45,728 nt of DNA, taken from positions 1-45,728 of the forward strand of contig JBBRTD010000005.1 of assembly GCA_038244685.1 (NCBI GenBank). Reading direction: 5' to 3'. The stretch's first letter is position 1. Each line of letters opens with the position of its first letter. A model generated the notes under the pieces. That model saw only the letters and a list, made by a program, of their open reading frames with translations, had not been told where the DNA came from and searched no databases. The DNA is from Minisyncoccia bacterium (GTDB lineage: Bacteria > Patescibacteriota > Minisyncoccia > Phycocordibacterales > UBA9973). The position numbers and the translations under genes were made by a program. Positions 13,682 through 30,681 of the stretch are shown here, piece after piece.

Positions 13682-13687
13682 ATACAT

Positions 13688-13762
13688 TCCGTGGTAGCTC
13701 AGCGGTAGAGCGGTCGCCTGTTAAGCGATTGGTCGTAGGTTCGATCCCTACCCACGGAGCCA
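13688..13762 (+). tRNA. tRNA-Asn (GTT)
   Basis: Acceptor TCCGTGG/CCACGGA, D-arm GCTC/GAGC, anticodon loop CTGTTAA, T-loop TTCGATC, encoded CCA. Confidence 0.98.
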
Positions 13763-13797
13763 AAACAAAAACCCCCAGAAATGGGGTGTTTTTATTT

Positions 13798-13934
13798 TGG
13801 CTCCGTGAGCAAAGTATCTGCATACTTTGCGTGGTAGGGATCGAAGCCAATTTCGTTTTTCGGTGCTAATCGAAACGAAAAGGTCTACTGGTCATGTAAT
13901 GACCGATATGTGTACTCACGTCTCTACCCACGGA
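13798..13934. repeat. tRNA-derived inverted/direct repeat element
   Basis: Antisense copy of tRNA 3' end (TGGCTCCGTG 13798-13807 plus GGTAGGGATCGAA 13833-13845) split by a hairpin; two more hairpins; direct copy CTACCCACGGA at 13924-13934. Confidence 0.75.
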
Positions 13935-13994
13935 AATTGCTTTTTATTAAAATTGTAATATGATTAACACATTAATAATCATTTAAAATATTGT

Positions 13995-14222
13995 ATGAAA
14001 AAAATTGCAGTTTTAAGTGTTCTAGGTTTTCTGTTATTAGGTTTATTTGGTTTTACAAATAATTCTGAAGCTCTTACTCGAGTCAAAGGTTATACCAAAA
14101 AAAGTGGTACTTATGTAATGCCTCATTATAAATCAACTTCTAATAAAGTTAAATACGACAATTATTCATCTAAAGGAAACTATAATCCATACACAGGGAA
14201 AAAGGGTTATAAGAAATGGTAA
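13995..14222 (+). CDS. small secreted basic protein
   Basis: Signal peptide; VKGYTKKSGTYVMPHYKS...GNYNPYTGKKG motif of a widespread uncharacterised family. Confidence 0.85.
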   Translation: MKKIAVLSVLGFLLLGLFGFTNNSEALTRVKGYTKKSGTYVMPHYKSTSNKVKYDNYSSKGNYNPYTGKKGYKKW

Positions 14223-14224
14223 AT

Positions 14225-14563
14225 ATGGAAAACCTTATAAAAAAAATATTAAAGTTTAGAGATGATAGAGATTGGAAACAATTTCACAACCCAAAGGATT
14301 GCGCCATATCTCTTTCTCTTGAGGCAGCAGAAGTTTTGGAACATTTTCAATGGAAGAATAAAGAGGAGATAGAAGAATATTTAAAAACACACAAAGAACA
14401 CATAGGTGAAGAATTAGCTGATGTTCTTTATTGGGTGCTTCTAATGAGTAATGATTTAGGTATAGATATAATTAAAGCTTCAGAAAAGAAATTAAAAAAG
14501 AATGGATTAAATTATCCAATTAGTAAATCTAAAGGTAAGCATACAAAATATAACCTTTTATAA
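14225..14563 (+). CDS. MazG-like nucleotide pyrophosphohydrolase (dCTP pyrophosphatase-like)
   Basis: RDWKQFHNPKD, EAAEVLEHFQW, EELADVL, NYP. Confidence 0.92.
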   Translation: MENLIKKILKFRDDRDWKQFHNPKDCAISLSLEAAEVLEHFQWKNKEEIEEYLKTHKEHIGEELADVLYWVLLMSNDLGIDIIKASEKKLKKNGLNYPISKSKGKHTKYNLL

Positions 14564-14683
14564 AATAATTCATTGTCAAAGTTAATTTATTATTCACGAA
14601 TTAAACGTTAAATATTTATATGGATATTTTTTTGTATCTTAGTAGAAGTTCGAACCTAGATAATTTTGGTATATAATATAAAA

Positions 14684-15208
14684 ATGAAAAAAGCTTTTGT
14701 TTGTCTCATCACTGGCCCAGCAGGGTCTGGTAAATCTTCGGTTTCAAAAGCATTGGCTGATAAATTTGAACGAAGTGCTGTAATTGAAGTAGATACTCTT
14801 CGTCATATGATAAAAGGTGGTTATGCAAGACCTTGGCCTCATAACGAGGAAGTGGATTTACAAGTTTCTCTCAGTATGAAAAATGCCTGTGATATGGCTA
14901 ATAATTTATTTGAAAAAGGTTTCAGTGTGTTTATTGATGACGTAATCGGGAGAAAGTTACTAGCACAATATTCAAATTCTTTCAAAGACAAAAACTTCAA
15001 AGCATTCTTACTAATGCCTTCATTAGAGTCTTTGTTGAAACGTTTTGACGATAGAGGGAACGACAAAGAACTTCGCGAGAGAACCATAGAACTTCATAAA
15101 AGATTTTCAGAAAAGAAAGATGAGTTAAATTGTCAAATTATAAATTCTAGCGACCAGACACTAGAGGAAACAGTAGTTGAGATTTATAAAGCAATAGTTT
15201 CATCATAG
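14684..15208 (+). CDS. P-loop kinase/phosphotransferase (AAA_33-like)
   Basis: ITGPAGSGKS Walker A, DTLR, LLKRFDDR lid; leaderless start 6 nt after TATAAT. Confidence 0.85.
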   Translation: MKKAFVCLITGPAGSGKSSVSKALADKFERSAVIEVDTLRHMIKGGYARPWPHNEEVDLQVSLSMKNACDMANNLFEKGFSVFIDDVIGRKLLAQYSNSFKDKNFKAFLLMPSLESLLKRFDDRGNDKELRERTIELHKRFSEKKDELNCQIINSSDQTLEETVVEIYKAIVSS

Positions 15209-15413
15209 GAAGTCCCGATAATAGCTTTCCTAACCTCGTCCCAAATTCGGAGTAAAATTTTCAACCATATTTAATAATGGTTATTTTTTGTATTCGAGAT
15301 AGATAAGAAATTGTGAAGTAATCATGATTATTATTGGTTAAATTACATATTAATTTTAAATTCATGTAGGATTATTACAATAAATATATTATAAATTAAT
15401 CTATTATTATTTT

Positions 15414-17099
15414 ATGTATAAATATTCTATTGGAATTTTAGTGTTCATGTACATTTTATTTTTTAATAATACTAATTTTGTTTTTTCATTAAGTGATAAT
15501 ATTGTTCTTAACCCATCTGTTGAATCAGCTACAGTCTCTAGTGCTTCACCAGACAACTGGTTACAAGATACCTGGGGAAATAATACACCTCAATTTATAT
15601 ATAAAAATACTGGCCATACATCAAATCATAGTTTATATATAAAAATGTCAGGGTGGAATACTGGTGATGCAAAGTGGTATTTCACACCTGTAAATGTGAT
15701 ACCAGATACAGATTACATTTACTCAGATTATTATATGTCAAACGTGAAGACAAGCATTGTTGCTATGAGTTTAGATGCACAAGGTACTCCTACTTATTTT
15801 GATGTTTCAACGGTTGTACCCGCTTCAAATTCTGTATGGAAACAAGCTACATATACATTCCGCACATTGCCAACCACTAAAACTATAACAATCTTTCATT
15901 TAATTCAGAAAAATGGATGGCTTCAGACTGATGATTATAATTTATCCCAACAAACAGGAACTGTAGTGTCTAGTTATGTGCCCAATAATTCAATGGAGAT
16001 AGTGTCACCAGTAGATTCTAGTCTGCCTAATCATTGGCTGCAGTCGTCATGGGGAGATAATACTCCATTATATGAATATGCAAATAATGGACATGATGGT
16101 TCAAGAAGTGTAAAACTTACAATGACAAACTATGTTTCTGGGGATGCTAAGTGGGATTACACTCCTCAAGTCCTTCCTCGTAGTAAAGATTACCAATTTA
16201 CTGCATGGTATAAAACTGACACCATCCCTCATGTAGTTGTACACTATATAAAAAATGACGGCACTGAAGATTTTTTTGGACTTTCCGATCCAGAACCAAT
16301 TGGAATTGACTGGCAGCAGTACAAAGGTGTATTTTCAGTTCCCCAAAACGTTAAAAAATTGTCAATATATTTTTTCCTCTCAAATAATGGCTTTTTACAA
16401 ACTGATAATTATCAAATTACCCCATATCAATATACTGGCTTTAATCGTCCTATCGTGACCTTGAGTTTTGATGATGGCTTTGAAAGCAATGTAAATACTG
16501 TATTACCAGTACTAGATAAATATGGATTCAAGGCTACTCATTGTTACGCTACTACATACTTAGAAGGACAGCCTACTCAAATTAGTAGTTTGTTAAAGAT
16601 TTCAAAGGATGGTCAGGAAACTTGCGATCATACTGTTAATCATTACGATTTGACGACTCAGTCTATATCAACAATTGATTACGAGTTATCACATTCTCAA
16701 AATTTCCTTGCAAATACAACCGGTCAACAAATTACAGATTTTGCAACTCCGTTCGGCTCCTATAATTTAAATGTAATTCAAGAAATAAAAAAATATTTTA
16801 AATCGCATCGTACTACTGATGAAGGTTATAATTCAAAAGATAATTTAAATCCGTATAAGATACTAGTACAGAATATGCAAGTTAACACCACTCTTGCACA
16901 ATTCCAACAATGGGTAAATAAAGCGAAGACAGATAATACTTGGCTTGTATTTCTTTATCATGCAGTTGATGTTCCTGGTGGTCTCGATCAATTTGATACG
17001 AAGAAAGCTGATTTTGATGCTCAGATGAAATGGTTAGCATCAACAGGTATTACAGTAAAACCGATTAATCAAGCTCTGGTTGAAGTGCAAGCACAGTAA
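15414..17099 (+). CDS. secreted polysaccharide deacetylase (CE4/NodB) with two N-terminal carbohydrate-binding-like repeats
   Basis: LSFDDG, DHTVNH, TPFG, FLYH motifs; duplicated ~160-aa modules (WLQxxWGxNTP, GDAKW, NGxLQTDxY). Confidence 0.9.
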   Translation: MYKYSIGILVFMYILFFNNTNFVFSLSDNIVLNPSVESATVSSASPDNWLQDTWGNNTPQFIYKNTGHTSNHSLYIKMSGWNTGDAKWYFTPVNVIPDTDYIYSDYYMSNVKTSIVAMSLDAQGTPTYFDVSTVVPASNSVWKQATYTFRTLPTTKTITIFHLIQKNGWLQTDDYNLSQQTGTVVSSYVPNNSMEIVSPVDSSLPNHWLQSSWGDNTPLYEYANNGHDGSRSVKLTMTNYVSGDAKWDYTPQVLPRSKDYQFTAWYKTDTIPHVVVHYIKNDGTEDFFGLSDPEPIGIDWQQYKGVFSVPQNVKKLSIYFFLSNNGFLQTDNYQITPYQYTGFNRPIVTLSFDDGFESNVNTVLPVLDKYGFKATHCYATTYLEGQPTQISSLLKISKDGQETCDHTVNHYDLTTQSISTIDYELSHSQNFLANTTGQQITDFATPFGSYNLNVIQEIKKYFKSHRTTDEGYNSKDNLNPYKILVQNMQVNTTLAQFQQWVNKAKTDNTWLVFLYHAVDVPGGLDQFDTKKADFDAQMKWLASTGITVKPINQALVEVQAQ

Positions 17100-17271
17100 T
17101 TATAATAGCAACAAAAATATCGAGAGCGGAATGAAATATTTCATTCCGCTTTTGTTTAGAAAGGTCTCCACTTCGCCCCACAAAAAAAGGGGGGTAAATA
17201 TTGACATAACACTATTTATATTATATTATCTCAACGAGAATAATGTTGTTCTCGTAAAAAAGGAGGTTATT

Positions 17272-17514
17272 ATGAAACTTTTTGATTCAGATTTTAATGA
17301 GGTTTGTGCAAAATGGGCCGTCAATCATCTTGTTCGAAATGGAATGACTCTTAAACCACTTGAGGTTAAACGAGAAATTCAAAATAGGGCAAAGGAATGG
17401 GGTGTTCCTGTGGAAAAAGTTGCGGAAGCACATAAGCTCATGTTTAATTATTTGGCAGGAATGAGCGATGCCAAAATTGATGATATTTTAAATTCAGATA
17501 AGGTTGAAAAGTAA
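17272..17514 (+). CDS. hypothetical protein (80 aa)
   Basis: AAGGAGG SD 5 nt upstream of ATG 17272; TTGACA-17-TATTAT promoter; the longer ORF-track start crosses a terminator. Confidence 0.75.
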   Translation: MKLFDSDFNEVCAKWAVNHLVRNGMTLKPLEVKREIQNRAKEWGVPVEKVAEAHKLMFNYLAGMSDAKIDDILNSDKVEK

Positions 17515-17757
17515 TTTTCAATAAAGGGGTAATTCCGGTCAGTTAAATTAGTTAGCCGATTTGTTTATAATACTAATCTGCATAAATAACTATATGACCC
17601 AAGAGAACAAGAACCCAACCTCTCTGGTAGAAGTTATTAAGTCCTGCAATTGTAAAAATTGTAGGACTTTTTATATAAAGGTTTCCACTTCGCCCCAGAG
17701 AGAGTTCAGAGATTTTAATCATGCTATATCATGATTGTTTTGGTGTATAATAAAATC

Positions 17758-18204
17758 ATGAAACATATTAACTTAAAAGGCTCTTGGGTTATTAAAGCTC
17801 CTATTGATCAAGTTTTTAAAATTATTAGTGATTTTGAAAATATGCCAAATAATTTTCCGACCGTTGCAGAGTCATTAGTTATTACAAAAAAAGATGGTAA
17901 TAAATTAGAAATCGATGCAAAAGCAAAGTCTTTCGGCATGGTATTTCCAGTTAAAATGAAAACAGAAATTATTCCAAGGGTTGGATATATTTCTGATAAT
18001 GAGAATTCAAAATTAGGTATATCTGGTCATGAAGAATTTTTAATGGAAGAAATAGGAGAAGGAACGAAGATTAATTATACTTACGAGGTTGATATTCATA
18101 ATAAATGGCTAAGGGTTATAGCTAAGCCGCTCATAGGTTGGTATTCAATGAAGTTTTGGGAAAAAGCTTTTATCGATAGATTAAAAGATATTATTAAAAA
18201 ATAA
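17758..18204 (+). CDS. SRPBCC/polyketide cyclase-like protein
   Basis: IKAPIDQVFKIISDFENMPNNFP, GTKINYTYE and C-terminal helix; leaderless start. Confidence 0.85.
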   Translation: MKHINLKGSWVIKAPIDQVFKIISDFENMPNNFPTVAESLVITKKDGNKLEIDAKAKSFGMVFPVKMKTEIIPRVGYISDNENSKLGISGHEEFLMEEIGEGTKINYTYEVDIHNKWLRVIAKPLIGWYSMKFWEKAFIDRLKDIIKK

Positions 18205-18318
18205 AGATTATTATTCAATTTTTCTTATAAAAGTTTTAACTTTATCTCAAGTTCGGAGCCCTAAAAATCACCTATATTTATTAGGTGATTTTTTCTTATT
18301 TGTTATAAATTCAAACCC

Positions 18319-18359
18319 ATTGACTTTACATATTGAAAAATGTAATGTGAAGAAAAAAT
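18319..18359 (+). promoter_or_regulatory. promoter duplicated at 20896-20936, with internal TTACA-N10-TGTAA operator-like repeat
   Basis: 38 of 41 nt identical between copies; TTGACT-17-TAATGT. Confidence 0.75.
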
Positions 18360-18386
18360 TCAATTCACAATTTAAAATTAAATCTT

Positions 18387-18779
18387 ATGAATAAGAATCA
18401 GGAACAGATAAAAGAAAAAATAAGAAAACTTTTATCGCAAGATTGTAATTTTGTAATAAAAGCAGTCCTTGAAAATCTTCCATGGCCCAAGGAAGTTGAT
18501 ACCGATAATAAATACTTTGTAAGGGAAGACGATGGCGACGGAGCAGTAAGAGGGATTAGTGTTCATTTTTTAGATAATGGAGATAGTATCATAGATCTCA
18601 GAGAATGCTGCATAGAATCTCATTTTGTTGAGTCTGAAATTTATTCAACACCACATGTTTACAGATTTCGTAACGTTTGTGGTGGCAGTATGAATCCATT
18701 GATTCAAAAAGCATTATTATTACTGGCTCTTACGATAGTAAATGACCCAGATGAAAAAATTAAAAATGAAACCTCTTAA
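18387..18779 (+). CDS. hypothetical protein, phage-like
   Basis: DDGDG...NGD...RFRxxxGGS...ALLLLA motif resembles uncharacterised phage proteins (from memory). Confidence 0.7.
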   Translation: MNKNQEQIKEKIRKLLSQDCNFVIKAVLENLPWPKEVDTDNKYFVREDDGDGAVRGISVHFLDNGDSIIDLRECCIESHFVESEIYSTPHVYRFRNVCGGSMNPLIQKALLLLALTIVNDPDEKIKNETS

Positions 18780-18794
18780 AATTTTTTAATTATT

Positions 18795-19049
18795 ATGGAA
18801 CAAACTAGATCTAAACAAGTTGATTTAGCAAAATCTATATTTTCTGGTATTGCTTTAGATAAGGATGGCTACTGCGGTTGTCCTAATTGCGGCTCCAGAG
18901 AGTTATTGCACGACGGGAATACTCTTGATAATGGTTCTTTGTATTGTTTGATATGCTATTTCTCAGTTTCTGGTAATGATCCTTACGAGATGGTTTCTCG
19001 TTGGAATTCAATAAACAGAGAATCATTCCAGTTGAAAATACTTTTTTAA
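18795..19049 (+). CDS. Lar (restriction alleviation)-like zinc-ribbon protein
   Basis: CPNCGS...CLIC...RWN pattern of the Lar_restr_allev family. Confidence 0.65.
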   Translation: MEQTRSKQVDLAKSIFSGIALDKDGYCGCPNCGSRELLHDGNTLDNGSLYCLICYFSVSGNDPYEMVSRWNSINRESFQLKILF

Positions 19050-19187
19050 TAAAAAGCCCTACCTCTCATTAAGATGTTAAGGGGCTTTTTTTGTATTTTT
19101 CCAAAAAAGTTCCAACCCCGTCCCAAATTTGGAGTAGACATATTCAGCTATTAACATTGAATCTTTTCTTTATGATATAATAATTTT

Positions 19188-19397
19188 ATGCAAAAAATAG
19201 CTACACGAATTTTTATTTATTCATCTATTGTTTTTGGAATTATTGGTATTTTAGTTGTTATAACTGGTTCAGGTCCCGATTCTCCCGATTCTAATATAAG
19301 CAAAATATTTATTAGACTTTTATTTGCAACTGTTTTTGTTATACTGCCTTCATTTGCATTGAGTATTGCCAGTAAGTATCTAAACGATAAATCTTAA
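19188..19397 (+). CDS. small 2-TM membrane protein
   Basis: Two hydrophobic helices; leaderless TGATATAAT promoter. Confidence 0.8.
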   Translation: MQKIATRIFIYSSIVFGIIGILVVITGSGPDSPDSNISKIFIRLLFATVFVILPSFALSIASKYLNDKS

Positions 19398-19466
19398 TCC
19401 TAAACAATAGTGTTTTTACTAATAATTTAAAATAGAATTAAAACTTAATTAAAAGTTTTAAATAGA

Positions 19467-19724
19467 TTATTTAGAGCGATGAATGCAGCCAGCCCAACAA
19501 CAAGGTCGACGCATTCCGCCCTTAATTTTCGATATGGTTTTCTTGATGCGTATATTCCTTGTCTCGGCTTTTTTGCCTGAAATAACCCAACATATCCATT
19601 CATTACGCGCAAGTGGGGTAATATCATTCCAGATAGCTTTTGCAGCAAGAGAAGTAGACATAGCCTTCCTTAAATCCTCTGGCATTTCATGTGGCAATTT
19701 GGAAATAGTCTCTTTTGGGGTCAT
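19467..19724 (-). CDS. YdeI/OmpD-associated (OmdA) family protein
   Basis: PEDL...W..ITPLARNEWICWV..GKK.ETR..RI, RRPCCWAGC.HR. Confidence 0.88.
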   Translation of the reverse strand: MTPKETISKLPHEMPEDLRKAMSTSLAAKAIWNDITPLARNEWICWVISGKKAETRNIRIKKTISKIKGGMRRPCCWAGCIHRSK

Positions 19725-19845
19725 AAGATTATTTTATCAAATTTTCTGAATACAGCAATTCGAACATTGTGATAATTATAGCTAGATTTTTAGATCTATT
19801 TTAATTATCTGTATAGATTATGCACTAAATGATATACTTAAGATT

Positions 19846-20337
19846 ATGAAAAAAATTGGAATTATAAATGAACATAATTTTTCTGAAGAGAAAATAAATG
19901 AACTTCCTGTTCGTAAAAAAGTTAGAGGTTTAATTTATAAGAACAATAATAATTTAGTTTGTATAGAAGAAAATGGTTATGGTATAAAACATCTATTAAA
20001 ACTTCCAGGGGGAAGCGTAGAAAAGAATGAGAGTAACATAAAGGCAATAAAGCGTGAAATTTTAGAAGAAACTGGATATGAAATAGACAATGTAAAATGT
20101 ATTGGTTTTATAGAAAATATTAGAAAAGAATACAAAATATACATAACATACTATGTGGCAAAAACGAAAGGCAAGCAGAAGAAATTAAAACTTACAGAGG
20201 AAGAACTGAAGGTTGAGACAAAGCCAATAGAAATAGAGGCAGAAATAGCAATGAAGAGAATTAAAGATGAATATAATAAAGCTCATAATGATAGCTCATT
20301 AAGAGATATTATGGTATTTGATGAATTAATTAAATAA
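19846..20337 (+). CDS. Nudix hydrolase
   Basis: LPGGSVEKNESNIKAIKREILEETGY Nudix box. Confidence 0.92.
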   Translation: MKKIGIINEHNFSEEKINELPVRKKVRGLIYKNNNNLVCIEENGYGIKHLLKLPGGSVEKNESNIKAIKREILEETGYEIDNVKCIGFIENIRKEYKIYITYYVAKTKGKQKKLKLTEEELKVETKPIEIEAEIAMKRIKDEYNKAHNDSSLRDIMVFDELIK

Positions 20338-20343
20338 ATCAAT

Positions 20344-20793
20344 ATGGATAATAAAAATATAATTATAAAAGTAAGAGGAGTTATTATATATGATAATAAA
20401 TTACTAATAGTAAAACACAAACAATCTAATTTTATGGCTCTTCCTGGGGGACATCTAGAATATGGGGAGGATGTAGTTGCTTGCTTAAAGAGAGAACTTG
20501 TTGAAGAGTTAGGAGTTTTACCTGAAATAGGAAGGTTGTTGTATATAAATACTTTTATGGATAATAAAAAAGATGAGTATGTGGAATTTTTCTTTGAGAT
20601 TAAAAATGGAGAAAATTATTTAAATATAGATGGATTAGAAAGAACTCATGCTCATGAATTATCTCAAATATTATGGGTTTCTCCTGATACGGACATTGAA
20701 TTTTTGCCAAAACAATTTGATGAAGATTTTAAAAATAATAAGATTTTTAAAGGAGAAACTAAATTTATTAATGAGTTAGATACTAATCAATAG
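20344..20793 (+). CDS. Nudix hydrolase
   Basis: LPGGHLEYGEDVVACLKRELVEELGV Nudix box. Confidence 0.92.
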   Translation: MDNKNIIIKVRGVIIYDNKLLIVKHKQSNFMALPGGHLEYGEDVVACLKRELVEELGVLPEIGRLLYINTFMDNKKDEYVEFFFEIKNGENYLNIDGLERTHAHELSQILWVSPDTDIEFLPKQFDEDFKNNKIFKGETKFINELDTNQ

Positions 20794-20962
20794 AGTCAAA
20801 ATATATGCATGCTTTGCTTGGTATATTTTTAGAAATATTTTAACTTAAGGTTAAGGTCTGTCATTATAGATAGGCCTTTTGTAAAATTTAAGTCTATTGA
20901 CTTTACAAATTGAAAAATGTAATGTATAGAAAAAATAGTACTAATTATTAAAAATAGAAAAG

Positions 20963-21367
20963 ATGAGGCAGTTTGAAAAAGTTTTAGGAATTGGAATTTT
21001 TGCGTTATTGATATACTCAATAATTAGCATAATAATTAATTTTTTTGATACGAGATTTTACTCGCTAATCCCAAATATTACTATCTTGCTTATAGCTGGA
21101 TTATTATCAGGCTTTATGGGATCCTTTGCTCCTTTCTGGAACACAGGCAAGTATCTTAAGATTAATAAAGTGGAAATAATTGTTGCTTATGAAGTTAAGT
21201 ATAAAGTTAAATTTATTTGCCACTTTTTAGGGTATTTAGGGGTAATTTGTATACTTAAGTCAAAGTTAATTTTTGATTCTTTCTGGTGGATTGGAGTATT
21301 TATAACTATATGGTATTTAATATATCTTTATATAATTATATTTAAACGACCGCTAAAAGAAGAATAA
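20963..21367 (+). CDS. hypothetical 4-TM membrane protein
   Basis: Four hydrophobic segments; own promoter at 20896. Confidence 0.75.
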   Translation: MRQFEKVLGIGIFALLIYSIISIIINFFDTRFYSLIPNITILLIAGLLSGFMGSFAPFWNTGKYLKINKVEIIVAYEVKYKVKFICHFLGYLGVICILKSKLIFDSFWWIGVFITIWYLIYLYIIIFKRPLKEE

Positions 21368-21390
21368 ATTTTTAATCTAATAACTAAAAG

Positions 21391-21831
21391 ATGAGAAAAA
21401 TTTTTTTATTAAGACATGGAGACTATGAAGGATCCGTGTCTGATCCGGTGTTATCGGATACAGGGAAGCAACAATCGCTATCGTTAGCTAATAAAATTAA
21501 GTTGAACTTAAATGGCTATACTGGTGATGTAACAATTTGGACATCTACTGCAAACAGAGCAAAAGGGATGGCTCAGATTATAAAGCAGGAGCTTCAACTG
21601 GCTTCATTAATTGAGATAGAAAATCTCTGGAGTGACAGCCGTCATGAATACCACTTTCGCTGGTTGAAAGAGGAACTTAATGGTTTTAAGGGAGAAGTTT
21701 TGATAATTATTTCACATTTGGAATATGTCAGAGATTTTCCAGAAATGTTAGGTTTCCCTGGAAATAAAGCAGGTTATGCTCAGGGGGTATTGATAGAAGA
21801 AGGGAGGTGTAATAATTTCAATTTTAATTAA
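21391..21831 (+). CDS. histidine phosphatase superfamily (SixA-like)
   Basis: LLRHG, LSDTGKQQ, TSTANRA, ISH motifs. Confidence 0.85.
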   Translation: MRKIFLLRHGDYEGSVSDPVLSDTGKQQSLSLANKIKLNLNGYTGDVTIWTSTANRAKGMAQIIKQELQLASLIEIENLWSDSRHEYHFRWLKEELNGFKGEVLIIISHLEYVRDFPEMLGFPGNKAGYAQGVLIEEGRCNNFNFN

Positions 21832-21978
21832 GTAAATACATTAAGAACGGTGTGGATTATTCCATATCGTTCTTTTTAGTTATATTATAATGCATATTTT
21901 GTGATTATTTAAACTTACTACTATATGTGCGTATATATAATATGATATAATTTATATTATATTTAAATTAATAAATTT

Positions 21979-22506
21979 ATGTCTATTTTGTATAAAAGTT
22001 CATCATTTGAAACTTATGCGTACTATGTTATCTATCCAGTATTAATCGGAATAAGTGTATTCTTTTCTTTCGGAATATTTTCTTATGGTAATTTAAGTTT
22101 ATTCACTGCTCTTTTTGCTGTATTTTTTATTTTCATATTTATTATCTCGATAGATTCTTTATGCAGACTAAGATATATCGAAATTACTGAAGACCAGATC
22201 ATAATTAAAAAAATAACAGGAAGTGAAATAGTTCAATTTGAAAATGTTGAATATGTATATAATTTGATAAACATAAATGGTAACTCTCTTATTGTTAGAT
22301 ACAAAGACTCACAAACACAAAAATCAAAAGTTATTTTAGTAAGACCAGATGAGAAAAATCCATCACCAGAAACTGGCTTTCCTGTTTATGCTTATGGTTC
22401 AACCGATTTAAACATAACAAAATTTATAAAAGAAAAGGCCATGAAGGCAAACCCTAATTACCTGTATGCAAGTAGTCCTCGCTGGTTTTTGTTGGGTCTT
22501 AAATAA
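21979..22506 (+). CDS. hypothetical membrane protein (2 TM plus beta-rich PH-like domain)
   Basis: Two N-terminal TM helices then IEITEDQIIIKK...IVQFENVE pattern. Confidence 0.7.
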   Translation: MSILYKSSSFETYAYYVIYPVLIGISVFFSFGIFSYGNLSLFTALFAVFFIFIFIISIDSLCRLRYIEITEDQIIIKKITGSEIVQFENVEYVYNLININGNSLIVRYKDSQTQKSKVILVRPDEKNPSPETGFPVYAYGSTDLNITKFIKEKAMKANPNYLYASSPRWFLLGLK

Positions 22507-22549
22507 ATATGCGTGCTTTATAAGTTATAAATTAAGGTATAATTGAGAT

Positions 22550-23050
22550 ATGAATAAGAATAGAATTTTAATTATTTCAATCGCAATTATAATTTGTATA
22601 TTTATTGGTTGTATAGTTTTTTATAACCCGTTTCTTAATCAAGCAAAAATATCTTCAAAGAATAACTCTCAATTTCCACCATCGAATACTTTATGCTTCG
22701 ATAGTTTTACCAATGCTCTTAATAATGGTTATGCCGATGGTTTCCGTATACCAGCGTTTAATTTTAGAGATGTGTCACATTTCAGATGTGCATCTCGGCT
22801 TGGTTTTGATCAGTATGAAATAAGAGCGACAGATAAAGAAGGGCATTCTTTTTATATCCATAAAGATGGAGGAGGGATGGCGGCTTCAGGTGCTGATACC
22901 GTTTATAATTTTTGCTATAAAAAAGATAATAATATTATAAGAAATGAGAAGCTGTCTGGACGTGAATCCACTAAAGAGATAGGAACTTGTTTCTGGACTG
23001 ATAATTTTCCCTCAAATCCAACAAGTGAATATGAGTTTAATCACAATTAA
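22550..23050 (+). CDS. hypothetical secreted/anchored protein
   Basis: N-terminal TM; four Cys in the soluble domain; leaderless promoter. Confidence 0.75.
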   Translation: MNKNRILIISIAIIICIFIGCIVFYNPFLNQAKISSKNNSQFPPSNTLCFDSFTNALNNGYADGFRIPAFNFRDVSHFRCASRLGFDQYEIRATDKEGHSFYIHKDGGGMAASGADTVYNFCYKKDNNIIRNEKLSGRESTKEIGTCFWTDNFPSNPTSEYEFNHN

Positions 23051-23150
23051 AATTTACTTTTTGAGTTATTTCTGTGTTTAAAAAATATTGACAATATAAG
23101 ATATTAGAAGTAATCTGAAGAAAAATTGTCTCACTAAAACTGTATATATT

Positions 23151-23783
23151 ATGCCAAAAATTAAGAGAGTAATCTTAACAGGGTTTCGCCCTTTTGGAAA
23201 TTATTTGTTTAATCCCACAGAAGACCTTATATATTATTATGATGATTTACCTAAAAGTATTAAATCAATTAATATATTTGGGGTTGTCCTACCTTGTACC
23301 TATTTTGGAGCATTTGAGGTTTTGTCTAAAATGATAAATGGGATAAAGCCAGATGCAATTATAAGCTTAGGATTATCGTCTTCAGTAAAAGGGATTAGGA
23401 TTGAAACAGTTTTCCGGAATTTAATGTTAGGGAAATATGCTGATGCTGATGGTTGTATGCCAGTTGAGCTACCTATTTGTACTGGATTAGAGGCAAGGGA
23501 ATATTTAGCTTCAACGGCTGATAATATTTCTTTGGCAAATTCATTGCACTTAGCGAAAATTCCAGTTGAAGTTTCAGGGGATGCAGATACTTTTATTTGT
23601 AATTCTTTGGGCTACTTAACTACCAAAAAGATTTTAGATAATAATCTTCACACAAGGAATATGTTCATTCATATCCCCTGGACTGATGACTATGAATCAA
23701 AAATTCTATTAGGTCCAAATAAGATCTTTCTAGAAAAGGAAGAGTTGCATCAAGCAGTTGAGCTGTTGATTAAAAATATTTAA
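23151..23783 (+). CDS. pcp: pyroglutamyl-peptidase I (C15)
   Basis: LTGFRPFG..NP, IRIE (Glu), DADTFICN (Cys), FIHIP (His). Confidence 0.9.
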   Translation: MPKIKRVILTGFRPFGNYLFNPTEDLIYYYDDLPKSIKSINIFGVVLPCTYFGAFEVLSKMINGIKPDAIISLGLSSSVKGIRIETVFRNLMLGKYADADGCMPVELPICTGLEAREYLASTADNISLANSLHLAKIPVEVSGDADTFICNSLGYLTTKKILDNNLHTRNMFIHIPWTDDYESKILLGPNKIFLEKEELHQAVELLIKNI

Positions 23784-23914
23784 TTACTAAAGAAATCAAG
23801 AACCACAATACGTCTTAATCGACAGGAGTGGTTCTTTTTTTTTGTTGAAATTTACCCGCCAGAGTCGTTCATGTTTCTATCTACAGATATTCCCAGTTAT
23901 GTTATTATTAATTT

Positions 23915-24991
23915 ATGGAAGAAATAAAAAATAAAAACCTTGGTTATAATGAATATTTTGAATCTAATAGAAAAAAATTAAAATTAGGTGAATCTTCTAT
24001 TGCACGAGTTATTTCTGAATATAAAGGGGCATATAAGATAAAAAATTCAGCTGGTGAATATTTTGCCAAAGTAACAGGTAAAAAGATTTTTAATGCTTTA
24101 TCTAGAGAAGATTACCCAGCTGTGGGAGATTGGGTTGTGATAAATGAGCAGGACCCTGAGTGGGCGATAATCAGAGATATTTTACCAAGACAGACATTAA
24201 TAAAAAGAAAATATAACAATAAAAATGGAATTCAAATTATTGCAACTAACATTGATGTAGCTTTTATTGTAGAATCTATTGGTAGAGATTTTAATTTAAA
24301 TCGTTTTGAAAGATATTTTGCTATAACAAAAGACGGAGGGGTCAAGTCTACTATTATTTTAAATAAAATAGATTTAATTTCTAAGGAAGAATTAGAATTG
24401 AAATTAAATCAAATAAAAGATAGATTCAAAAATGTTGATATTATTTTAACTAGTGCTTTAGCAGAAATAGGATTAGAAGAATTAAGATCGTATATCTTGC
24501 CCGGGAAAACATATTGCTTTCTCGGATCTTCTGGGGTAGGGAAATCATCTTTGATTAATAAATTACTTGAAGAAAATGCGATAGAAACAAAAGCGATAAG
24601 TTTTCAGACGGAAAGAGGAAAACATACTACCACTAGCCGAGAAATGTATTTTTTAAAAAATGGTGGCATTGTTATAGATAATCCAGGAATGAGAGAAATT
24701 GGAATGACAAACGTTAACGAGGGAGTAGATAATACATTTAATGAAATAAAAGAATTAGCTTCAAGTTGTAAATTCGTTGACTGCTCTCATATTTCTGAAC
24801 CAGGATGTAATGTTTTATTAGCCTTAGACTCTGGTAAGTTAAATTTAGAAAAATATTCCAATTATATTAATTTAAAAAGAGAATCTGATTATTATGAAAT
24901 GACTGAGATTGAAAAAAAAGAGAAAGATTATAAATTCGGAAAATTTATTAAAAAAGCCAAAAAAGAAATAGAAAAATATAAAAATAAATAG
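23915..24991 (+). CDS. rsgA: ribosome small subunit-dependent GTPase A
   Basis: PAVGDWV, NKID, GSSGVGKSSLIN, GKHTT, DNPG, CKFVDCSHISEPGC zinc site. Confidence 0.95.
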   Translation: MEEIKNKNLGYNEYFESNRKKLKLGESSIARVISEYKGAYKIKNSAGEYFAKVTGKKIFNALSREDYPAVGDWVVINEQDPEWAIIRDILPRQTLIKRKYNNKNGIQIIATNIDVAFIVESIGRDFNLNRFERYFAITKDGGVKSTIILNKIDLISKEELELKLNQIKDRFKNVDIILTSALAEIGLEELRSYILPGKTYCFLGSSGVGKSSLINKLLEENAIETKAISFQTERGKHTTTSREMYFLKNGGIVIDNPGMREIGMTNVNEGVDNTFNEIKELASSCKFVDCSHISEPGCNVLLALDSGKLNLEKYSNYINLKRESDYYEMTEIEKKEKDYKFGKFIKKAKKEIEKYKNK

Positions 24992-25101
24992 GATACAATA
25001 TTCATTCATATTTTATTTTTTTAAAAAAGTCTTTTATTGACATTGTTTATTATTTGGAATAATCTAATAGAAAATATCTAAAATCACTAAAAAATATAAA
25101 T

Positions 25102-25533
25102 ATGATTTATCTAGAGAGACCAGAAAATTTTAATAGTATATTTGAAGTTGCAAGTTGTTTCTTTGAAAGGGATGGAAAATTTCTGCTTTTGCTTCGTCAG
25201 GATTATAAGCCACAAGGTAATACCTGGGGCGTTCCTGCCGGTAAGGTTGAGTTAAATGAAGAGCCATTGGATGCTATAAGTAGAGAGCTCGAAGAAGAAA
25301 CTGGTTATAAAGCAAATAAGGATAATTTTACATTTACAAAAACAATTTATGTAAAATATCCTAATTATGACTTCATATACCATATCTATTCATTTTCATT
25401 AAAAGAAAGCTTTGAGGTGAAGATTGACCCGAAGGCCCATAAGGAATTTAAGTGGGCAACACCAGATGAGGCATTAAGTATGGATTATATTCAAGACTTA
25501 GATGCCTGTATTAAAATTCAATATAATTTGTAA
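25102..25533 (+). CDS. Nudix hydrolase
   Basis: WGVPAGKVELNEEPLDAISRELEEETGY. Confidence 0.92.
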   Translation: MIYLERPENFNSIFEVASCFFERDGKFLLLLRQDYKPQGNTWGVPAGKVELNEEPLDAISRELEEETGYKANKDNFTFTKTIYVKYPNYDFIYHIYSFSLKESFEVKIDPKAHKEFKWATPDEALSMDYIQDLDACIKIQYNL

Positions 25534-25621
25534 TACAATTGCCCCTCTCTACAGAAGGGGCAATTTTGTTTTATATTACTTTGTGGAAGTTTTAACCTTT
25601 GGTATAATTAATCATATATAT

Positions 25622-25783
25622 ATGGTCATAGATATAGAGCTCACTTTAAATAGGTTTGGATTTGGAAAAATTTCTGAGAATAAATTTCAGTTCTTTTGTT
25701 TTAGATTTTCTAAATGGAAAATTACCAATAAATATTCCATCTCTTTTGAAATAAATTGGAGGGGCAAAGAAGAGGCGAAATAA
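25622..25783 (+). CDS. small hypothetical protein (53 aa)
   Basis: ATG 25622 follows TGGTATAAT; the ORF-track start crosses terminator 25536-25567. Confidence 0.55.
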   Translation: MVIDIELTLNRFGFGKISENKFQFFCFRFSKWKITNKYSISFEINWRGKEEAK

Positions 25784-25832
25784 TAGATTTTGATTTTATC
25801 CACTATTTTAAATATTTTGTTACAATATGTAG

Positions 25833-27059
25833 ATGCGAAATATAGTAGATAATTTATTTCTCCATGTCGATGGCGACTCATTCTTCGTGGCCTGTGAGGT
25901 ATCTCAGCACCCCGAATATATAGGGTTGCCTGTTATTGTGGGTGAGGATAGAGGAATAGCGGTGGCGATGAGTTACGAAGCAAAGAAGCTTGGAGTCACT
26001 CGTGGTATGCCAGTATTCCAAATAAAAAAACAATTTCCTAATGTTATTATCCTTCCACACCATTTTGATTTATATAGAAAGATTTCATCTGATGTATACA
26101 ATATCTTTTTATCTTATCTTGAATTAGTAGAAATTTATAGCATAGATGAATGTTTTATGATTGTAAAACCGTCTGATATAAAATACGCTGGCTCACCAGA
26201 AAAGCTTTTGAATTCCATCAAGGATGAGATTAAAAAGAAAATAGGGGTCACTTACTCTTTTGGTCTTGGTCGTACTAAGGTTCTTGCAAAGACTGCGTCT
26301 AAATTACAGAAACCCAATGGTATGGTTTTGCTTTTAAACGAACAAGACGAAGTGGAGGCTCTTAAGAAAACTTCCATTAATGATGTTTGGGGCATAGGTA
26401 GGCAAACAATTCCAAGGCTACATGATATGGGTATAAAAACTGCTTATGACTTTGTGCATTATTCTGTTGATCATATTAAAAAATATTTTCCTGAGCCTCT
26501 ATTGCATATTCAACAAGAATTATCCGGCAAGTCAGTATTGGAATTTGATTCTAATCATGATCCGCGGGATCAGAAGTCGATTCAATCAACAGCAACCTTT
26601 AAACCATCCTCTAATGATCCTAAAATAATATTTGCTGAATTATCTCTAAATATTGAAAGAGCATGCGAGCACGCAAGGGAATTAAATCTTATGACAAATT
26701 CGGTTTCATTTTTTGTAAAAAATACAAATTTTATTATTCGTGCAGGTGATAGTCATCTATCTGTGTATACTACTAATCCGAGTGTAATACTAAACACAAT
26801 TAAGCCCGCTTTTTATAAATTATTACATAATGATGAAATGATTCGTTCAACTGGAATTACTTTATGTAATCTACGCAGAGGTGAAGAGGTACCGAGGGAT
26901 TTATTTGGAATACAAGAAGTATCCGAAGCCAAAAATATTGTAGAAGATGTAAGCGATAGTATTAGAGCGAAATTTGGGAATAATTCCATTAAGCACGCTT
27001 CTTCACTTAAGGGAGGTGTAAAACAAAGAGGGAATTCTTTTCCTAAGACGCATCAATAA
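25833..27059 (+). CDS. dinB: Y-family DNA polymerase (DinB/UmuC-like)
   Basis: HVDGDSFFVACE, SYEAKKLGV, YSIDE, AKTASK..KPNG, VWGIG, clamp-like RDLF. Confidence 0.92.
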   Translation: MRNIVDNLFLHVDGDSFFVACEVSQHPEYIGLPVIVGEDRGIAVAMSYEAKKLGVTRGMPVFQIKKQFPNVIILPHHFDLYRKISSDVYNIFLSYLELVEIYSIDECFMIVKPSDIKYAGSPEKLLNSIKDEIKKKIGVTYSFGLGRTKVLAKTASKLQKPNGMVLLLNEQDEVEALKKTSINDVWGIGRQTIPRLHDMGIKTAYDFVHYSVDHIKKYFPEPLLHIQQELSGKSVLEFDSNHDPRDQKSIQSTATFKPSSNDPKIIFAELSLNIERACEHARELNLMTNSVSFFVKNTNFIIRAGDSHLSVYTTNPSVILNTIKPAFYKLLHNDEMIRSTGITLCNLRRGEEVPRDLFGIQEVSEAKNIVEDVSDSIRAKFGNNSIKHASSLKGGVKQRGNSFPKTHQ

Positions 27060-27233
27060 TATATTTTATCTTTAAATTATTATAATTGACAAATCGCCAT
27101 AGTAATGCTATTATCACAAACGTAATTGATCTTTAATATAAGGTTATTTTTGGTTTTTTTTAGTGAATTACTTTGGTCTTTTTATTAAGAGGCTAGTGTA
27201 ATTCACTAAATATATAACTAAATAATAAACATC

Positions 27234-27803
27234 ATGGGAACAGAAAGTCTTTTGTTGATATCCAATTTATTAAAAATTAATAATATTGGATTTGCTAAAT
27301 TACTATTTCAAAGTAATTTAGGTGTAGATGAGCTTTATGAGTGGGAGAACTCAAATATCTCGCTTAAACTAAATTTATTTTGTGAGAACAATAAACCATT
27401 CACTCTTGTTTTAAATTGGAAAGATTTCGATGACATCGAATGTGCAGAAAATGATGAATTCGAAAACTCAATTTGTATTATGAGTGGGATAAAAAGTTAC
27501 AATTCACAAAAAATGCTTGAAATTAAACTTTTCTTTCCGGGGTCATATTTTAATTGTGGCGAGTGCTACATCTTCGAATATGATAAAACAGAAGAATTAG
27601 ATGAAAAACCCATTGAATCTTATAATGGAAAAAATTTTCAGCCTAGCCAATTTGAAAATGAAAATTCAAAAATGGAAAGGATACGCCGGAGAAATTTATT
27701 ATTTGTTATTTTTGCGATTATTATTATTATTATCGCTGGATGTTATTATGTTGTAAAAAATCCAGAGATATCAAAGCAAGTAATTAATTTTTTTAGGTTT
27801 TAA
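27234..27803 (+). CDS. hypothetical protein with C-terminal TM
   Basis: Acidic N-domain then RRR plus TM helix; own promoter, leader hairpin and terminator. Confidence 0.75.
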   Translation: MGTESLLLISNLLKINNIGFAKLLFQSNLGVDELYEWENSNISLKLNLFCENNKPFTLVLNWKDFDDIECAENDEFENSICIMSGIKSYNSQKMLEIKLFFPGSYFNCGECYIFEYDKTEELDEKPIESYNGKNFQPSQFENENSKMERIRRRNLLFVIFAIIIIIIAGCYYVVKNPEISKQVINFFRF

Positions 27804-27925
27804 AATTTAAAAATGAATCACTATTAACCCTACGAAAACCCTACAGGTCATCGTAGGGTTTTTATTTTACTAATATATTCACAGAATATATTAGTATGGC
27901 TTTAATTTTATGATACAATTAAAAC

Positions 27926-28474
27926 ATGGAAACATTTAAATCAACTATATTTTCAATTTTAATTTTAGCTATATTTGGAGGAGCTATATATTGGTCTATA
28001 ACGACAATGCAATCAGGTTCTGGTTTTGTGGCAGACCAAAGAATAAAACAACTTAAAGTCGAGAATGAAAATCTTAAGAAAGAATTAAAAAATTCTACAG
28101 TTGAACCAGCCATTGTAGTTTCAGTACAACCGGACCCTGTTTCTGTTGCTCCTGTTGATGTTAAACCCCAAACTGAGAATAAACCAGTAGTGACACCTAC
28201 GACTTATAAATATCAGAGTTTAATAAATGAAATACAAAGTCTTATCAACAAGAACATTACCTTAAAACTTAAGGTCACTGGTACAAGTGTCGGTACATTG
28301 CAAAAGTTTTTAAATGTCTACAATAAAACCTCAAATAAAATTGATAATGATTATGGAAAAAGTTCTCAGACTTTAGTTATTGCTTTTCAAAAGTCTCAAA
28401 GCTTAACCGCCAACGGGGAAGTGAATGTTACTACTTTCAAAAAAATGATTGATTGGCTTAAAAAGCAGAATTAA
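27926..28474 (+). CDS. membrane-anchored protein with C-terminal peptidoglycan-binding (PG_binding_1-like) domain
   Basis: TM, coiled coil, P/V linker, VGTLQKFL...DNDYG...VIAFQKSQSLTANGEV. Confidence 0.85.
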   Translation: METFKSTIFSILILAIFGGAIYWSITTMQSGSGFVADQRIKQLKVENENLKKELKNSTVEPAIVVSVQPDPVSVAPVDVKPQTENKPVVTPTTYKYQSLINEIQSLINKNITLKLKVTGTSVGTLQKFLNVYNKTSNKIDNDYGKSSQTLVIAFQKSQSLTANGEVNVTTFKKMIDWLKKQN

Positions 28475-28645
28475 TTTCTAATATTATTTAATTAAATATT
28501 TTTGACAAAAAGCTATTATTATGCTATACTATAGAAGTATATGGTTCTTTGATGTTATTTTATTGGCTTAAATTGTTGGACCTTCTTAGTTTCTATTGGG
28601 GAATTAAGACGGTCCAACAATTCTGTTGCCCATAAATCTATACAA

Positions 28646-29116
28646 ATGAATACACTAGTTATTGTTGCTTTCATTGCTTCGGCAATATGTTATATCTATT
28701 TGGTAATTTTTGGTATCAGAGATACCATTATAGAGAAATTAACCAATCTGTATATTTATACCGATCCACATTTTGCGAATCGGAGTAAACATACGAGGAA
28801 TGATTGGGATAGTTTAAATTATGGTACTTTTATTAATAAGAGGCCAATAATTTTTGCACTACTTGTTAATGCCTTTTTCATATTAGGATTACCATTTTTT
28901 GCTGCAATATTTTCTGCCATTCTTTTTGGAAAGGTTCCAGTTTCTTCCGAAATAGAATCGTTGGCTAATGTGCAAATTATGGTAACAACTATCGCCTGGT
29001 ATTATCTATTCGCTGTCATCGGAGTGTTTTATCATATATTTTCTTTTAAGAAATATAAGAATAAAGCCTCAGAAGATAAGAGCTATTGGGAAGCTAAGTC
29101 TATACTCATGGGTTAA
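28646..29116 (+). CDS. hypothetical 3-TM membrane protein
   Basis: Three hydrophobic segments; own promoter, leader hairpin and terminator. Confidence 0.75.
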   Translation: MNTLVIVAFIASAICYIYLVIFGIRDTIIEKLTNLYIYTDPHFANRSKHTRNDWDSLNYGTFINKRPIIFALLVNAFFILGLPFFAAIFSAILFGKVPVSSEIESLANVQIMVTTIAWYYLFAVIGVFYHIFSFKKYKNKASEDKSYWEAKSILMG

Positions 29117-29295
29117 ATAAATGACCGATTGATTATAGATGATTTATTTAATTTGTATAAAGTGCAAACCGTCTTTTAACAAAACCGTTAAAGGGCGGTT
29201 TTTTTATTTAGAATAAATAATATTGACAAAATGTATTTAAGGTTGTAATATAAAGGAAAAATTAATTATAGTATTAACTTCTAATTTAATTTAAA

Positions 29296-29622
29296 ATGGT
29301 TTATTTAAAAAAAGTATCTTTGGTTTTATTACCCGATGGAACCGTAAATATTATTCCATTGGAGGTAATATCTGATTGCCAGATTATAATTCCAAACAAC
29401 GATTTGGGAATATGGGTTCATGAGGAAACCACGCCAGGTTTATCTTTTGATGGTTCAGGAGAACACAATAAGGTAAGAGACATAACTCAAGAAGACATTG
29501 CTGCTATTATTAAAAATGGTGGACAAAGTTTGATTGAAGTAAATTATTACAATAAACTTAGTACACCAACTTGTTTTGGTGGAAGCAAAAGAGTTGTTTT
29601 ACATTTAAAATCAATCCAATGA
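29296..29622 (+). CDS. hypothetical protein
   Basis: TTGACA-17-TAATAT promoter; ATGA coupling to next gene. Confidence 0.75.
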   Translation: MVYLKKVSLVLLPDGTVNIIPLEVISDCQIIIPNNDLGIWVHEETTPGLSFDGSGEHNKVRDITQEDIAAIIKNGGQSLIEVNYYNKLSTPTCFGGSKRVVLHLKSIQ

Positions 29623-29936
29623 AAGCAATCGTGCGCTATCAGGATAAAATTGATTTATCTATTCAAAAAGGAATAACTCCTTATTCTTTAATAAACGTTT
29701 ACGGGATAATGTTTGTATTGAAACTTATTAATTCTCTTATTAAAACTGATAAGAAAAATAAGATGAAGACGATACCCATGCTTTATCCTAAAAGAATGAA
29801 AGAAGGAGAGATTGAGAGCTACCTCGAAAAACTAAAAGAAGCCGGCTTTAGAATTGCTGGCTGGTACGAAGATTTCATCGACGAAGACACTAGTGATATT
29901 GTTGAAGTTCAAAGATGGAAAATTTATTACCTGTAA
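29619..29936 (+). CDS. hypothetical protein with C-terminal WxEDFIDEDT motif
   Basis: ATG 29619 overlaps upstream TGA; terminator 29954-29983. Confidence 0.75.
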   Translation: MKAIVRYQDKIDLSIQKGITPYSLINVYGIMFVLKLINSLIKTDKKNKMKTIPMLYPKRMKEGEIESYLEKLKEAGFRIAGWYEDFIDEDTSDIVEVQRWKIYYL

Positions 29937-29991
29937 ATAAAAATGTATTATAACGGCCCCATGCTAATTGTATGGGGCTGTTTTATATTAA

Positions 29992-30621
29992 TTATATTTC
30001 TGACTTAATAGCCGTTACAACTAGACGTTTATCGTGAGTATGAAATTCAGGGATCCAAGTGCCGGAACAAGTTATAAGTTTTAGATAATATCCATCGTTT
30101 TGATTAAAGACAGTATCCGCTGATGAATTATAGTCATATTCTGAAGATGAAATAACAGTAAAATGAACTTTTTTACCTTCTATCATTTCCACATAAATAT
30201 CATCTCCAATTTTAATATCATTTAAGTTACCAAAAACAGCCTTGAATCCTAGTCCATTGTTTACATGTCCAGCTATAATGGCACTTCCTTTTTCTCCAGG
30301 ATAAGTTCCATATTTATAAAGTCCGACGTCAAAGAAATTATTTGGGGTAGACATGTTGCCACGTTTAGTAATTCCAACATTCTGTATTTTTGTACTAATT
30401 TTTAAAGATGGGATGGTAAGCCTTGGAGTAAATTCGCTATTATTAATTTGTTTCTGGGGAATAGGCGAAATGTTTTCTGAAGGTTTCTTTTCGTAAGTAG
30501 CAGGAAGTAATATTTCATCGTTTGGAGAAAAATATATGAAAGTTGTAATAATATAACTAAACGTGACTATGGTCACTGTCGAGAGAAAAATTATTTTAAT
30601 TTTATCATTTAATTTTTTCAT
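29992..30621 (-). CDS. class F sortase
   Basis: N-terminal TM; PGEKGSAIIAGHV (His), LITCSG (Cys), KRLVV (Arg). Confidence 0.92.
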   Translation of the reverse strand: MKKLNDKIKIIFLSTVTIVTFSYIITTFIYFSPNDEILLPATYEKKPSENISPIPQKQINNSEFTPRLTIPSLKISTKIQNVGITKRGNMSTPNNFFDVGLYKYGTYPGEKGSAIIAGHVNNGLGFKAVFGNLNDIKIGDDIYVEMIEGKKVHFTVISSSEYDYNSSADTVFNQNDGYYLKLITCSGTWIPEFHTHDKRLVVTAIKSEI

Positions 30622-30636
30622 ATATAAATATAAAAT

Positions 30637-30673: not shown

Positions 30674-30681
30674 AATAACCT

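Follow-up and report, generated by a model that had tools for sequence, protein, structure and literature searches.

The stretch of DNA analysed here, called the window throughout, comprises 45,728 nucleotides of a Minisyncoccia bacterium (assembly GCA_038244685.1, contig JBBRTD010000005.1; contig C5 of an 850-kb genome labelled G000, with 33% GC and 96.6% completeness) and carries, downstream of a tRNA-Asn(GTT) gene on the plus strand (13688..13762), a tandem series of small gene units separated by a repeated junction motif. The original prediction, made from the sequence alone, had described an integron-like array of about 25 genes, all but one on the plus strand, with five related motifs at junctions and copies of TTCGAAC at two further ones. 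Indeed, 26 open reading frames (ORFs) are found in 13995-29936, 25 of them on the plus strand, and the five motifs and both TTCGAAC copies lie exactly where they had been placed; runs on one strand are not rare in this genome, with at least 24 ORFs on the same strand in 27 of 473 stretches of 25 ORFs (contigs C1-C9, the contig of the window included). Terminator-like sites are enriched (18 versus 6.1 +/- 2.8 in shuffles). The original prediction had also given most units promoters of their own, and promoter-like sites show no enrichment (111 versus 99.4 +/- 10 in shuffles, in an uninformative scan).

A complete joint between two units consists of a P arm of about 28 bases, a GGAGC core and the left arm of the next unit, and the same core is present at 13756-13760 in the 3' end of the tRNA-Asn gene. 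All features named in the following are on the plus strand unless stated otherwise, and E-values derive from a profile hidden Markov model built from relatives. The first array position (13763..13934) is occupied by a folded mini-element. It contains hairpins and, from about 13797 on, the 3' half of the tRNA in inverted form, and at 13924-13934 it repeats 11 bases of the tRNA end in direct orientation. The cargo of unit 1 (13995..14563) is an ORF of 75 amino acids (aa) without Pfam hit and a MazG-like protein, and is followed by a remnant junction (14570..14660) in which P arm and core have decayed, while the left arm (14603-14660), with GTTCGAAC at 14648-14655, is intact (left-arm profile 28.3 bits versus 0.8 for the control); this remnant is 85% identical to DNA immediately behind a junction in the related genome G298. 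Unit 2 (14684..15208) encodes a P-loop kinase (AAA_18/AAA_33) with a homologue in G264 and ends at a full junction (15222..15310; E 2.8e-14) with a P arm reading antisense LRIWDEVRKAII..., core GGAG at 15249-15252 and the left arm of the next unit. Unit 3 (15414..17099), a polysaccharide deacetylase with a carbohydrate-binding domain, is bounded by a truncated junction (17159..17190), of which the P arm alone remains (antisense WGEVETF) and the core is lost, and unit 4 (17272..17514), an 80-aa ORF without Pfam hit, by a junction with degenerate core and short left arm (17676..17745; E 0.0034) that aligns with a junction in locus L127. Unit 5 (17758..18204) encodes a SRPBCC/polyketide-cyclase-like protein, which relatives carry elsewhere in their arrays, and the full junction behind it (18228..18320; E 3.5e-7) has its core GGAG at 18255-18258 and a left arm with an inverted repeat and a degenerate palindrome near 18309. 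Unit 6 (18387..19049), with a 130-aa ORF and an 84-aa zinc-ribbon-like ORF (a weak Lar match below cut-off), precedes a junction (19104..19180; E 2.8e-5) with P arm (antisense LQIWDGVGTF), core GGAG at 19131-19134 and short left arm. Unit 7 (19188..19724) combines a 69-aa membrane ORF on the plus strand, with nine homologues at the loci of relatives, and an OmdA/YdeI-family ORF on the minus strand, and is followed by a remnant junction (19751..19770) keeping the distal part of the P arm only (16.3 bits versus 7.5 and 10.3 for controls). The two TTCGAAC copies, previously taken together as junction marks, thus belong to different site halves: the one at 14649 is part of a left arm, the one at 19759 part of a P arm.

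The motif copies at 15232 and 19114 (A) differ at 2 of 23 bases and those at 17160 and 17677 (B) at 1 of 21, with no further close copy of either elsewhere in the 850-kb genome. A first profile, built from nine B-like sites of other genomes, placed the five window motifs among the six highest-scoring sites genome-wide (35.2, 30.4, 23.5, 20.6 and 15.9 bits; reversed-genome maximum 17.6); it was seeded with the B pattern of the window and is independent for the A copies only, and junction 15222 did not rise above the reversed-genome control with it. Because a B-derived profile also recovers three A copies, A and B motifs, once in register, form one family. With a refined profile trained on relatives the junctions at 15222, 19104 and 18228 rank top genome-wide at 31.5, 30.1 and 29.8 bits (reversed-genome maximum 18.7), and the B copies reach only 10.4 and 3.2 bits. 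The genome-wide profile search, suggested earlier as a check, confines the motif to this locus. All five junctions and both remnants lie between 14.6 and 19.8 kb, and no junction scoring above control was detected from 19770 to 31500; the demonstrable array consequently consists of seven units from 13.76 to 19.8 kb and falls short of the predicted end at 29,990.

The nature of the motif emerges from the comparison with the tRNA-Asn loci of 33 related genomes, selected by match to the tRNA of the window, with the best 120 of 640 homologues of the large serine recombinase (LSR) of the relative G280, and with 42 metagenomic LSR loci examined out of 68 returned. Read on the minus strand, the motif encodes W-D/G-E-V-x-T-F or LRTWDDVR, with a stop usually about 15 codons from the core. 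In 10 of the 33 relatives an LSR gene stands head-on to tRNA-Asn and stops antisense inside it (nine ending LRG-stop, one LPR-stop); at the remaining loci one 169-aa LSR stub, six folded mini-elements and 16 instances of other DNA are found. A called tRNA-Asn is overlapped at 17 of the 42 metagenomic LSR loci. Among the best 120 homologues, 79 C-termini are LRG-stop-like, 11 read on into the tRNA antisense, 10 carry a WDDVR tail, nine have related tails and 11 are unclassified; homologue P0012 ends LRTWDDVRKAII..., where the 15222 junction reads LRIWDEVRKAII..., with agreement in 10 of 12 residues. Furthermore, a 570-aa LSR in L218 reads straight through a junction, as does a Pfam-confirmed 486-aa LSR without N-terminus in L107. 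The missing tail (LRTWDDVR and about seven codons) is located at the far end of most LSR islands and of each small unit. As far as sequence can tell, the motif is the other half of an attachment (att) site located within the recombinase gene, and we infer that the 3' end of tRNA-Asn is the target of insertion. We are fairly confident that the motifs are detached C-terminal LSR codons joined to the GGAGC end of tRNA-Asn and likely constitute att joints from serial LSR insertion, which supports the predicted serial capture at the tRNA 3' end with att-like scars distinct from attC and allows the enzyme class to be named as LSR. The LSR gene overlapping attL antisense to its target gene is present in relatives, and the window keeps tail fragments only; a quick LSR tree served solely to group the tRNA-Asn LSRs. 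As a side observation, other LSRs of the genus (L013-L042) have their antisense stop within tRNA-Leu, Thr, Lys, Glu and Gly, and this self-overlapping design is therefore general in the lineage.

The anatomy of the site provides further detail. In G201 and G198, tRNA and joints differ at the base preceding GGAG, which would place the crossover within GGAGC. Relative to the end of the core, TTCGA begins at -20 in the tRNA, and each of the 23 P arms (of 53) retaining it has it at -25, which, for the left arm only, matches the 5-bp shift between attB and attP described for serine integrases (PMC3783163). The right side of the core is variable with little information near the core, so the occupied tRNA is likely reusable after each insertion. 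In LSR islands the left arm is coding, and GTTCGAAC lies 62 bases away from the core (about 71 in a second subgroup). In the left arms of LSR-less units this palindrome occurs at 48-53 bases in 47 of 185 joints, compared with 1-7 joints for other offsets, and stops interrupt the LSR frame in 30 of 35 arms; these arms are non-coding and roughly one helical turn shorter than those of LSR islands, and GTTCGAAC suggests itself as a putative binding site. Small GC-rich hairpins are inserted between P arm and core in L127 (near 4900 and 5480) and at the G300 junction 1640. Equally, some joints keep 11-14 bases of the tRNA end (G137, 12,750 bases after tRNA-Asn; G168, junction 15624), which suggests other LSR subfamilies cutting further 5' in the same tRNA.

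Joints are found at 19 of the 33 loci of relatives, and at 16 of the 24 loci with at least 3 kb of downstream sequence. Joint centres fall within ORFs in 5 of 58 cases, compared with 79% coding DNA, 50 of 58 segments are shorter than 3.5 kb with a median of 1,070 bp, and units in relatives sometimes carry opposite-strand genes. The joints are oriented with the tRNA, with 50 plus-strand sites versus one minus-strand and one reversed site in 434,605 bases (profile trained on the plus strand). In G280 the profile located 10 joints behind a 9.6-kb LSR island, inspection by eye added four variant ones, and one 610-bp unit is present twice (92.6% identity) with joints at both ends. The expectation that breakpoints coincide with the motif is borne out by three comparisons: homology between the SRPBCC unit of the window and G168 stops at -1/-1 of the junction, that between G264 and G300 (91%, 1,048 bp) at 0/0, and L083 and L104 share 881 bp at 99.5% that begin in the P arm behind unrelated DNA; many other shared stretches stop at gene ends. 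The SRPBCC gene lies before the 69-aa gene in G000 and G168, after it in G284, and first behind the tRNA in G312. Order changes, the duplicate and the shared arms lead us to infer that single units may still move on their own.

Outside the relatives, a scan of a species collection with the exact pattern, the counts of which lean to the commonest arm type, returned the exact consensus in 109 stretches; among the 77 loci listed, 17 (some overlapping) are preceded by a same-strand tRNA-Asn, and non-Patescibacteria labels are borne by four short contigs. Records with the same motif and named homologues of the recombinase of the relatives are labelled almost entirely as Patescibacteria groups, and viral contigs yielded zero matches to the exact consensus. 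The exact Asn-type motif, with up to three mismatches allowed, was present in 5 of 401 genomes sampled across the phylum, and is therefore concentrated near this family and not phylum-wide.

In the mechanism proposed, a circular unit with P arm, core and left arm would recombine within GGAGC of tRNA-Asn; the insertion would restore the tRNA and shift older units downstream, and each joint left behind would be composed of P arm, core and the left arm of the older unit. The one- and two-gene units would likely have arisen from LSR islands by deletion and now bear a standard non-coding left arm, and the presence of an LSR island would still allow their excision and reinsertion; in relatives the LSR is usually in the same array as the units, and the action in trans put forward by the original prediction is hypothetical. 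More tentatively, it is possible that Patescibacteria run a serine-recombinase counterpart of the integron, in which an LSR excises gene-sized cassettes with a standard non-coding arm as circles, rearranges and duplicates them and exchanges them among species; this LSR would cut within its own gene, swap its C-terminal tail upon insertion (possibly an on/off switch) and reuse the tRNA end indefinitely without a directionality factor, aided by GTTCGAAC as a helically phased accessory site at a distance of about 51, 62 or 71 bases to the core.

Several observations weigh against serial LSR insertion with mobile units. An LSR is carried by 73 of 93 genomes of the genus, but the search for a recombinase elsewhere in the 96.6% complete G000 genome found no LSR, the only matches being of 20-57 residues to LSR C-terminal tails, seven at tRNA genes and one on contig C2; the array is thus likely dormant and decaying in this strain. 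The search for circular junctions, equally foreseen by the original prediction, found neither a circle nor an excision joint for this strain in the two runs that contain it, where the data are contigs only, from one study and one run perhaps the source, and cannot show absence; nor was there a circular contig among the 42 metagenomic LSR loci, again in contig-level data. Candidate excision joints derived from contigs of other organisms with low likeness and were not counted as evidence, one example being a contig that links the tRNA end to SRPBCC (13760 to 17745) across unknown sequence. A symmetry scan found no dyad peak near the core and no att centre, and the site is therefore atypical and its crossover dinucleotide not fixed. 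The profiles were iterated on the same loci that they scored, they missed the four variant joints of G280, and they identified no junction at 8 of the 24 loci with at least 3 kb downstream. The shared stretches that stop at gene ends instead of junctions belong here as well; as such stops are expected at 80% identity, they are considered neutral. Finally, LSR stubs of 486, 169, 123 and 118 aa stand at unit starts, and this gradation indicates that erosion also produces units; island erosion certainly contributes, and the units may in part be eroded LSR islands.

That erosion alone accounts for the array, each unit being what is left, in immobile form, of a full LSR island after loss of recombinase and interior, as in cis-mobilizable elements (CIMEs), and moving only as passenger of an adjacent island, is rather unlikely. 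The continuum of LSR stubs, joint tails from several LSR subfamilies in one array and the decayed joints of the window are in line with this explanation, and there is precedent in the three-step route described for tandems of CIMEs and IMEs (integrative and mobilizable elements; PMC5704250) and in the same proposal for 15 ssrA islands without module (PMC3146451). On the other hand, a common non-coding left arm before unrelated genes, the duplicated unit, the reversed order, LSR-less units directly behind the tRNA and the 99.5% identical unit in two genome records argue against immobile remnants. It is highly improbable that the motif is a regulatory element, a repetitive extragenic palindrome, a miniature inverted-repeat transposable element or a chance similarity unrelated to gene arrival: folded mini-elements do occur beside this tRNA and within some joints, and some window copies are degenerate, but within the genome the motif occurs at this locus only, shares the orientation of the tRNA, is the same in kind as real LSR C-termini and, unless by coincidence, would not be read through by LSR genes.

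Integrons and clusters of attC sites lacking integron integrases (CALINs) are arrays of small units between recombination sites, shared and reordered across genomes, with attC boxes of the form RYYYAAC...GTTRRRY. The array has small units between sites, also shared and reordered across genomes, in common with them, and differs in the lack of IntI and attC boxes, in some opposite-strand genes and in what is presumably serine chemistry. CALINs lack IntI, so its absence is by itself no argument against them. A true integron or an integrase-less attC cluster served by a tyrosine integrase is nevertheless hardly credible and already largely refuted, since the mostly co-oriented one- and two-gene units with typical cassette cargo are opposed by an attC box pair in none of 190 junction windows (shuffles 1.6 +/- 1.2), by a sole tyrosine recombinase that is Xer-like (TIGR02249 127.5 bits versus an IntI cut-off of 265), and by a motif that encodes an LSR tail. 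With regard to a bottom-strand hairpin of attC type across the site, folds have z above -1.3 in four of the five window junctions, the fifth (-3.5) being a terminator-like stem, and 74 of the 190 folds predicted show base pairing between P arm and right arm, a count without control.

For serial LSR insertion at tRNA-Asn, the closest published system is that of the ssrA islands of Dehalococcoides with the serine integrase DsiB (McMurdie et al., 2011, PMC3146451). Both share tandem islands behind an RNA gene with a conserved motif just before each repeat, a reverse-strand LSR (about 540 aa in Dehalococcoides) with its 3' end overlapping attL, and islands without integration module (15 of 31 there), and the authors suggested that a complete LSR gene exists only in the circular form or where the island stands behind a further one. 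Here, too, tandem units are delimited by the repeated 3' end of the target together with a conserved motif next to it, with a repeat of only about 5 bases compared with a duplicated core of 20 in Dehalococcoides. The target here is tRNA-Asn with the crossover near the CCA end, there the T-loop of the tmRNA; units here are about 1 kb with one or two genes, whereas vcrABC islands are about 12 kb; the left arm here is standard and non-coding; and a duplicate unit occurs within one array, where that paper reports none within a strain. An ssrA island proper has ssrA as target and a six-gene integration module with DsiA/DsiB, unlike the present locus, where the genes adjoining the LSR vary from island to island; no search for DsiA was made.

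Integrase-less elements that keep attL and attR also pile up at one target in CIME/IME tandems (PMC5704250), and the units without LSR similarly appear to keep both arms after loss of the integrase. The site-specific serine-recombinase IMEs covered in that source disrupt dispensable genes, whereas here the tRNA would be restored and the units are gene-sized; TndX-type serine recombinases work in both directions without recombination directionality factor (PMC5704250). With LI/A118-family serine integrases (PMC3783163) the recombinases share Resolvase and Recombinase domains and the 5-bp motif shift between target and P arm. In contrast to them, the imperfect inverted repeat about a central dinucleotide expected for such sites is not seen, the att site lies inside the integrase gene, and an attL-like target that is used again and again would run counter to the classical one-way rule. 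Prochlorococcus tycheposons (bioRxiv 10.1101/2020.12.28.424599) are equally additive tRNA-anchored islands with the newest material beside the tRNA, but 910 of 937 use tyrosine recombinases, and they possess their own integrase, att sites of about 40 bases and a size of 10-20 kb. No description of the gene-sized form with non-coding arms in Patescibacteria was found in the literature searched, which did not cover subscription journals and supplements; such LSR islands may already figure in TIGER tables or in papers behind a paywall.

That an attL-overlapping LSR stacks islands at an RNA gene is already known from Dehalococcoides, which limits the surprise; distinct here are the tRNA 3'-end target with a 5-base core, the size of the units (that of a gene), their phased arm without coding function, and the fact that units are duplicated and change order. 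The ways in which ultra-small Patescibacteria acquire and rearrange accessory genes are, to our knowledge, largely open, and the finding names an enzyme class, a target and a joint sequence, all of them accessible to a plasmid assay. Lacking attC boxes, the units are likely missed by integron scans. Current island catalogues require an integrase and exclude islands below 2 kb (PMC12424338), so that such units are invisible to them. A tRNA-restoring LSR that accepts repeated insertion at one site would furthermore be useful for gene stacking.

Beyond the array, the distal accessory region (19846..29936, plus strand) comprises 16 ORFs, among them three Nudix proteins, a histidine phosphatase, a peptidase C15, RsgA, DinB and a peptidoglycan-binding protein, with no detectable junction. 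Its 53-aa ORF and DinB both lie within junction-bounded units in G168, the 53-aa ORF also in G298, and these 10 kb may be an older eroded part of the array. A defence island was considered and rejected for the cargo, as PADLOC matched just the three Nudix proteins (candidate family PDC-S07). A generic repeat search returned just AT-rich chance pairs and one promoter duplication; the latter, a 72-base promoter-like stretch at 18307-18378 and 20884-20955 (79% identity) before two different accessory genes, may be a remnant left arm. An Rfam scan found no RNA family inside the array.

The mini-element at 13763..13934 is a separate element family, of which this genome has related pieces behind tRNA-Leu, tRNA-His and tRNA-Gln as well (C1 near 316674, 320414 and 124486), and a second copy in G276 appears to sit behind a junction. 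On the minus strand of C1, at 119830, about 4.8 kb downstream of tRNA-Gln(CTG), a junction-like site of 20.5 bits with a different core suggests a parallel array. Just upstream of tRNA-Asn, the 5' end of tRNA-Asn is present a second time at 13505-13687, with GC-rich hairpins behind it; this may be a structured insertion element targeting the tRNA 5' end, and similar elements (72-91% identity) lie upstream of tRNA-Asn in eight relatives. In ten relatives (G216, G264, G292, G305, G311, G162, G204, G234, G298 and G312) tRNA-Asn is split near the anticodon by an insert of 250-600 bases, probably an intron. Contig C14 of G000 (13.5 kb) carries a second tmRNA and nine tRNAs, partly duplicating others, and may be a phage or a misbinned piece. 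At the start of the window, positions 1-375 represent the 3' end of a 16S rRNA gene and 947-1320 the RNase P RNA.

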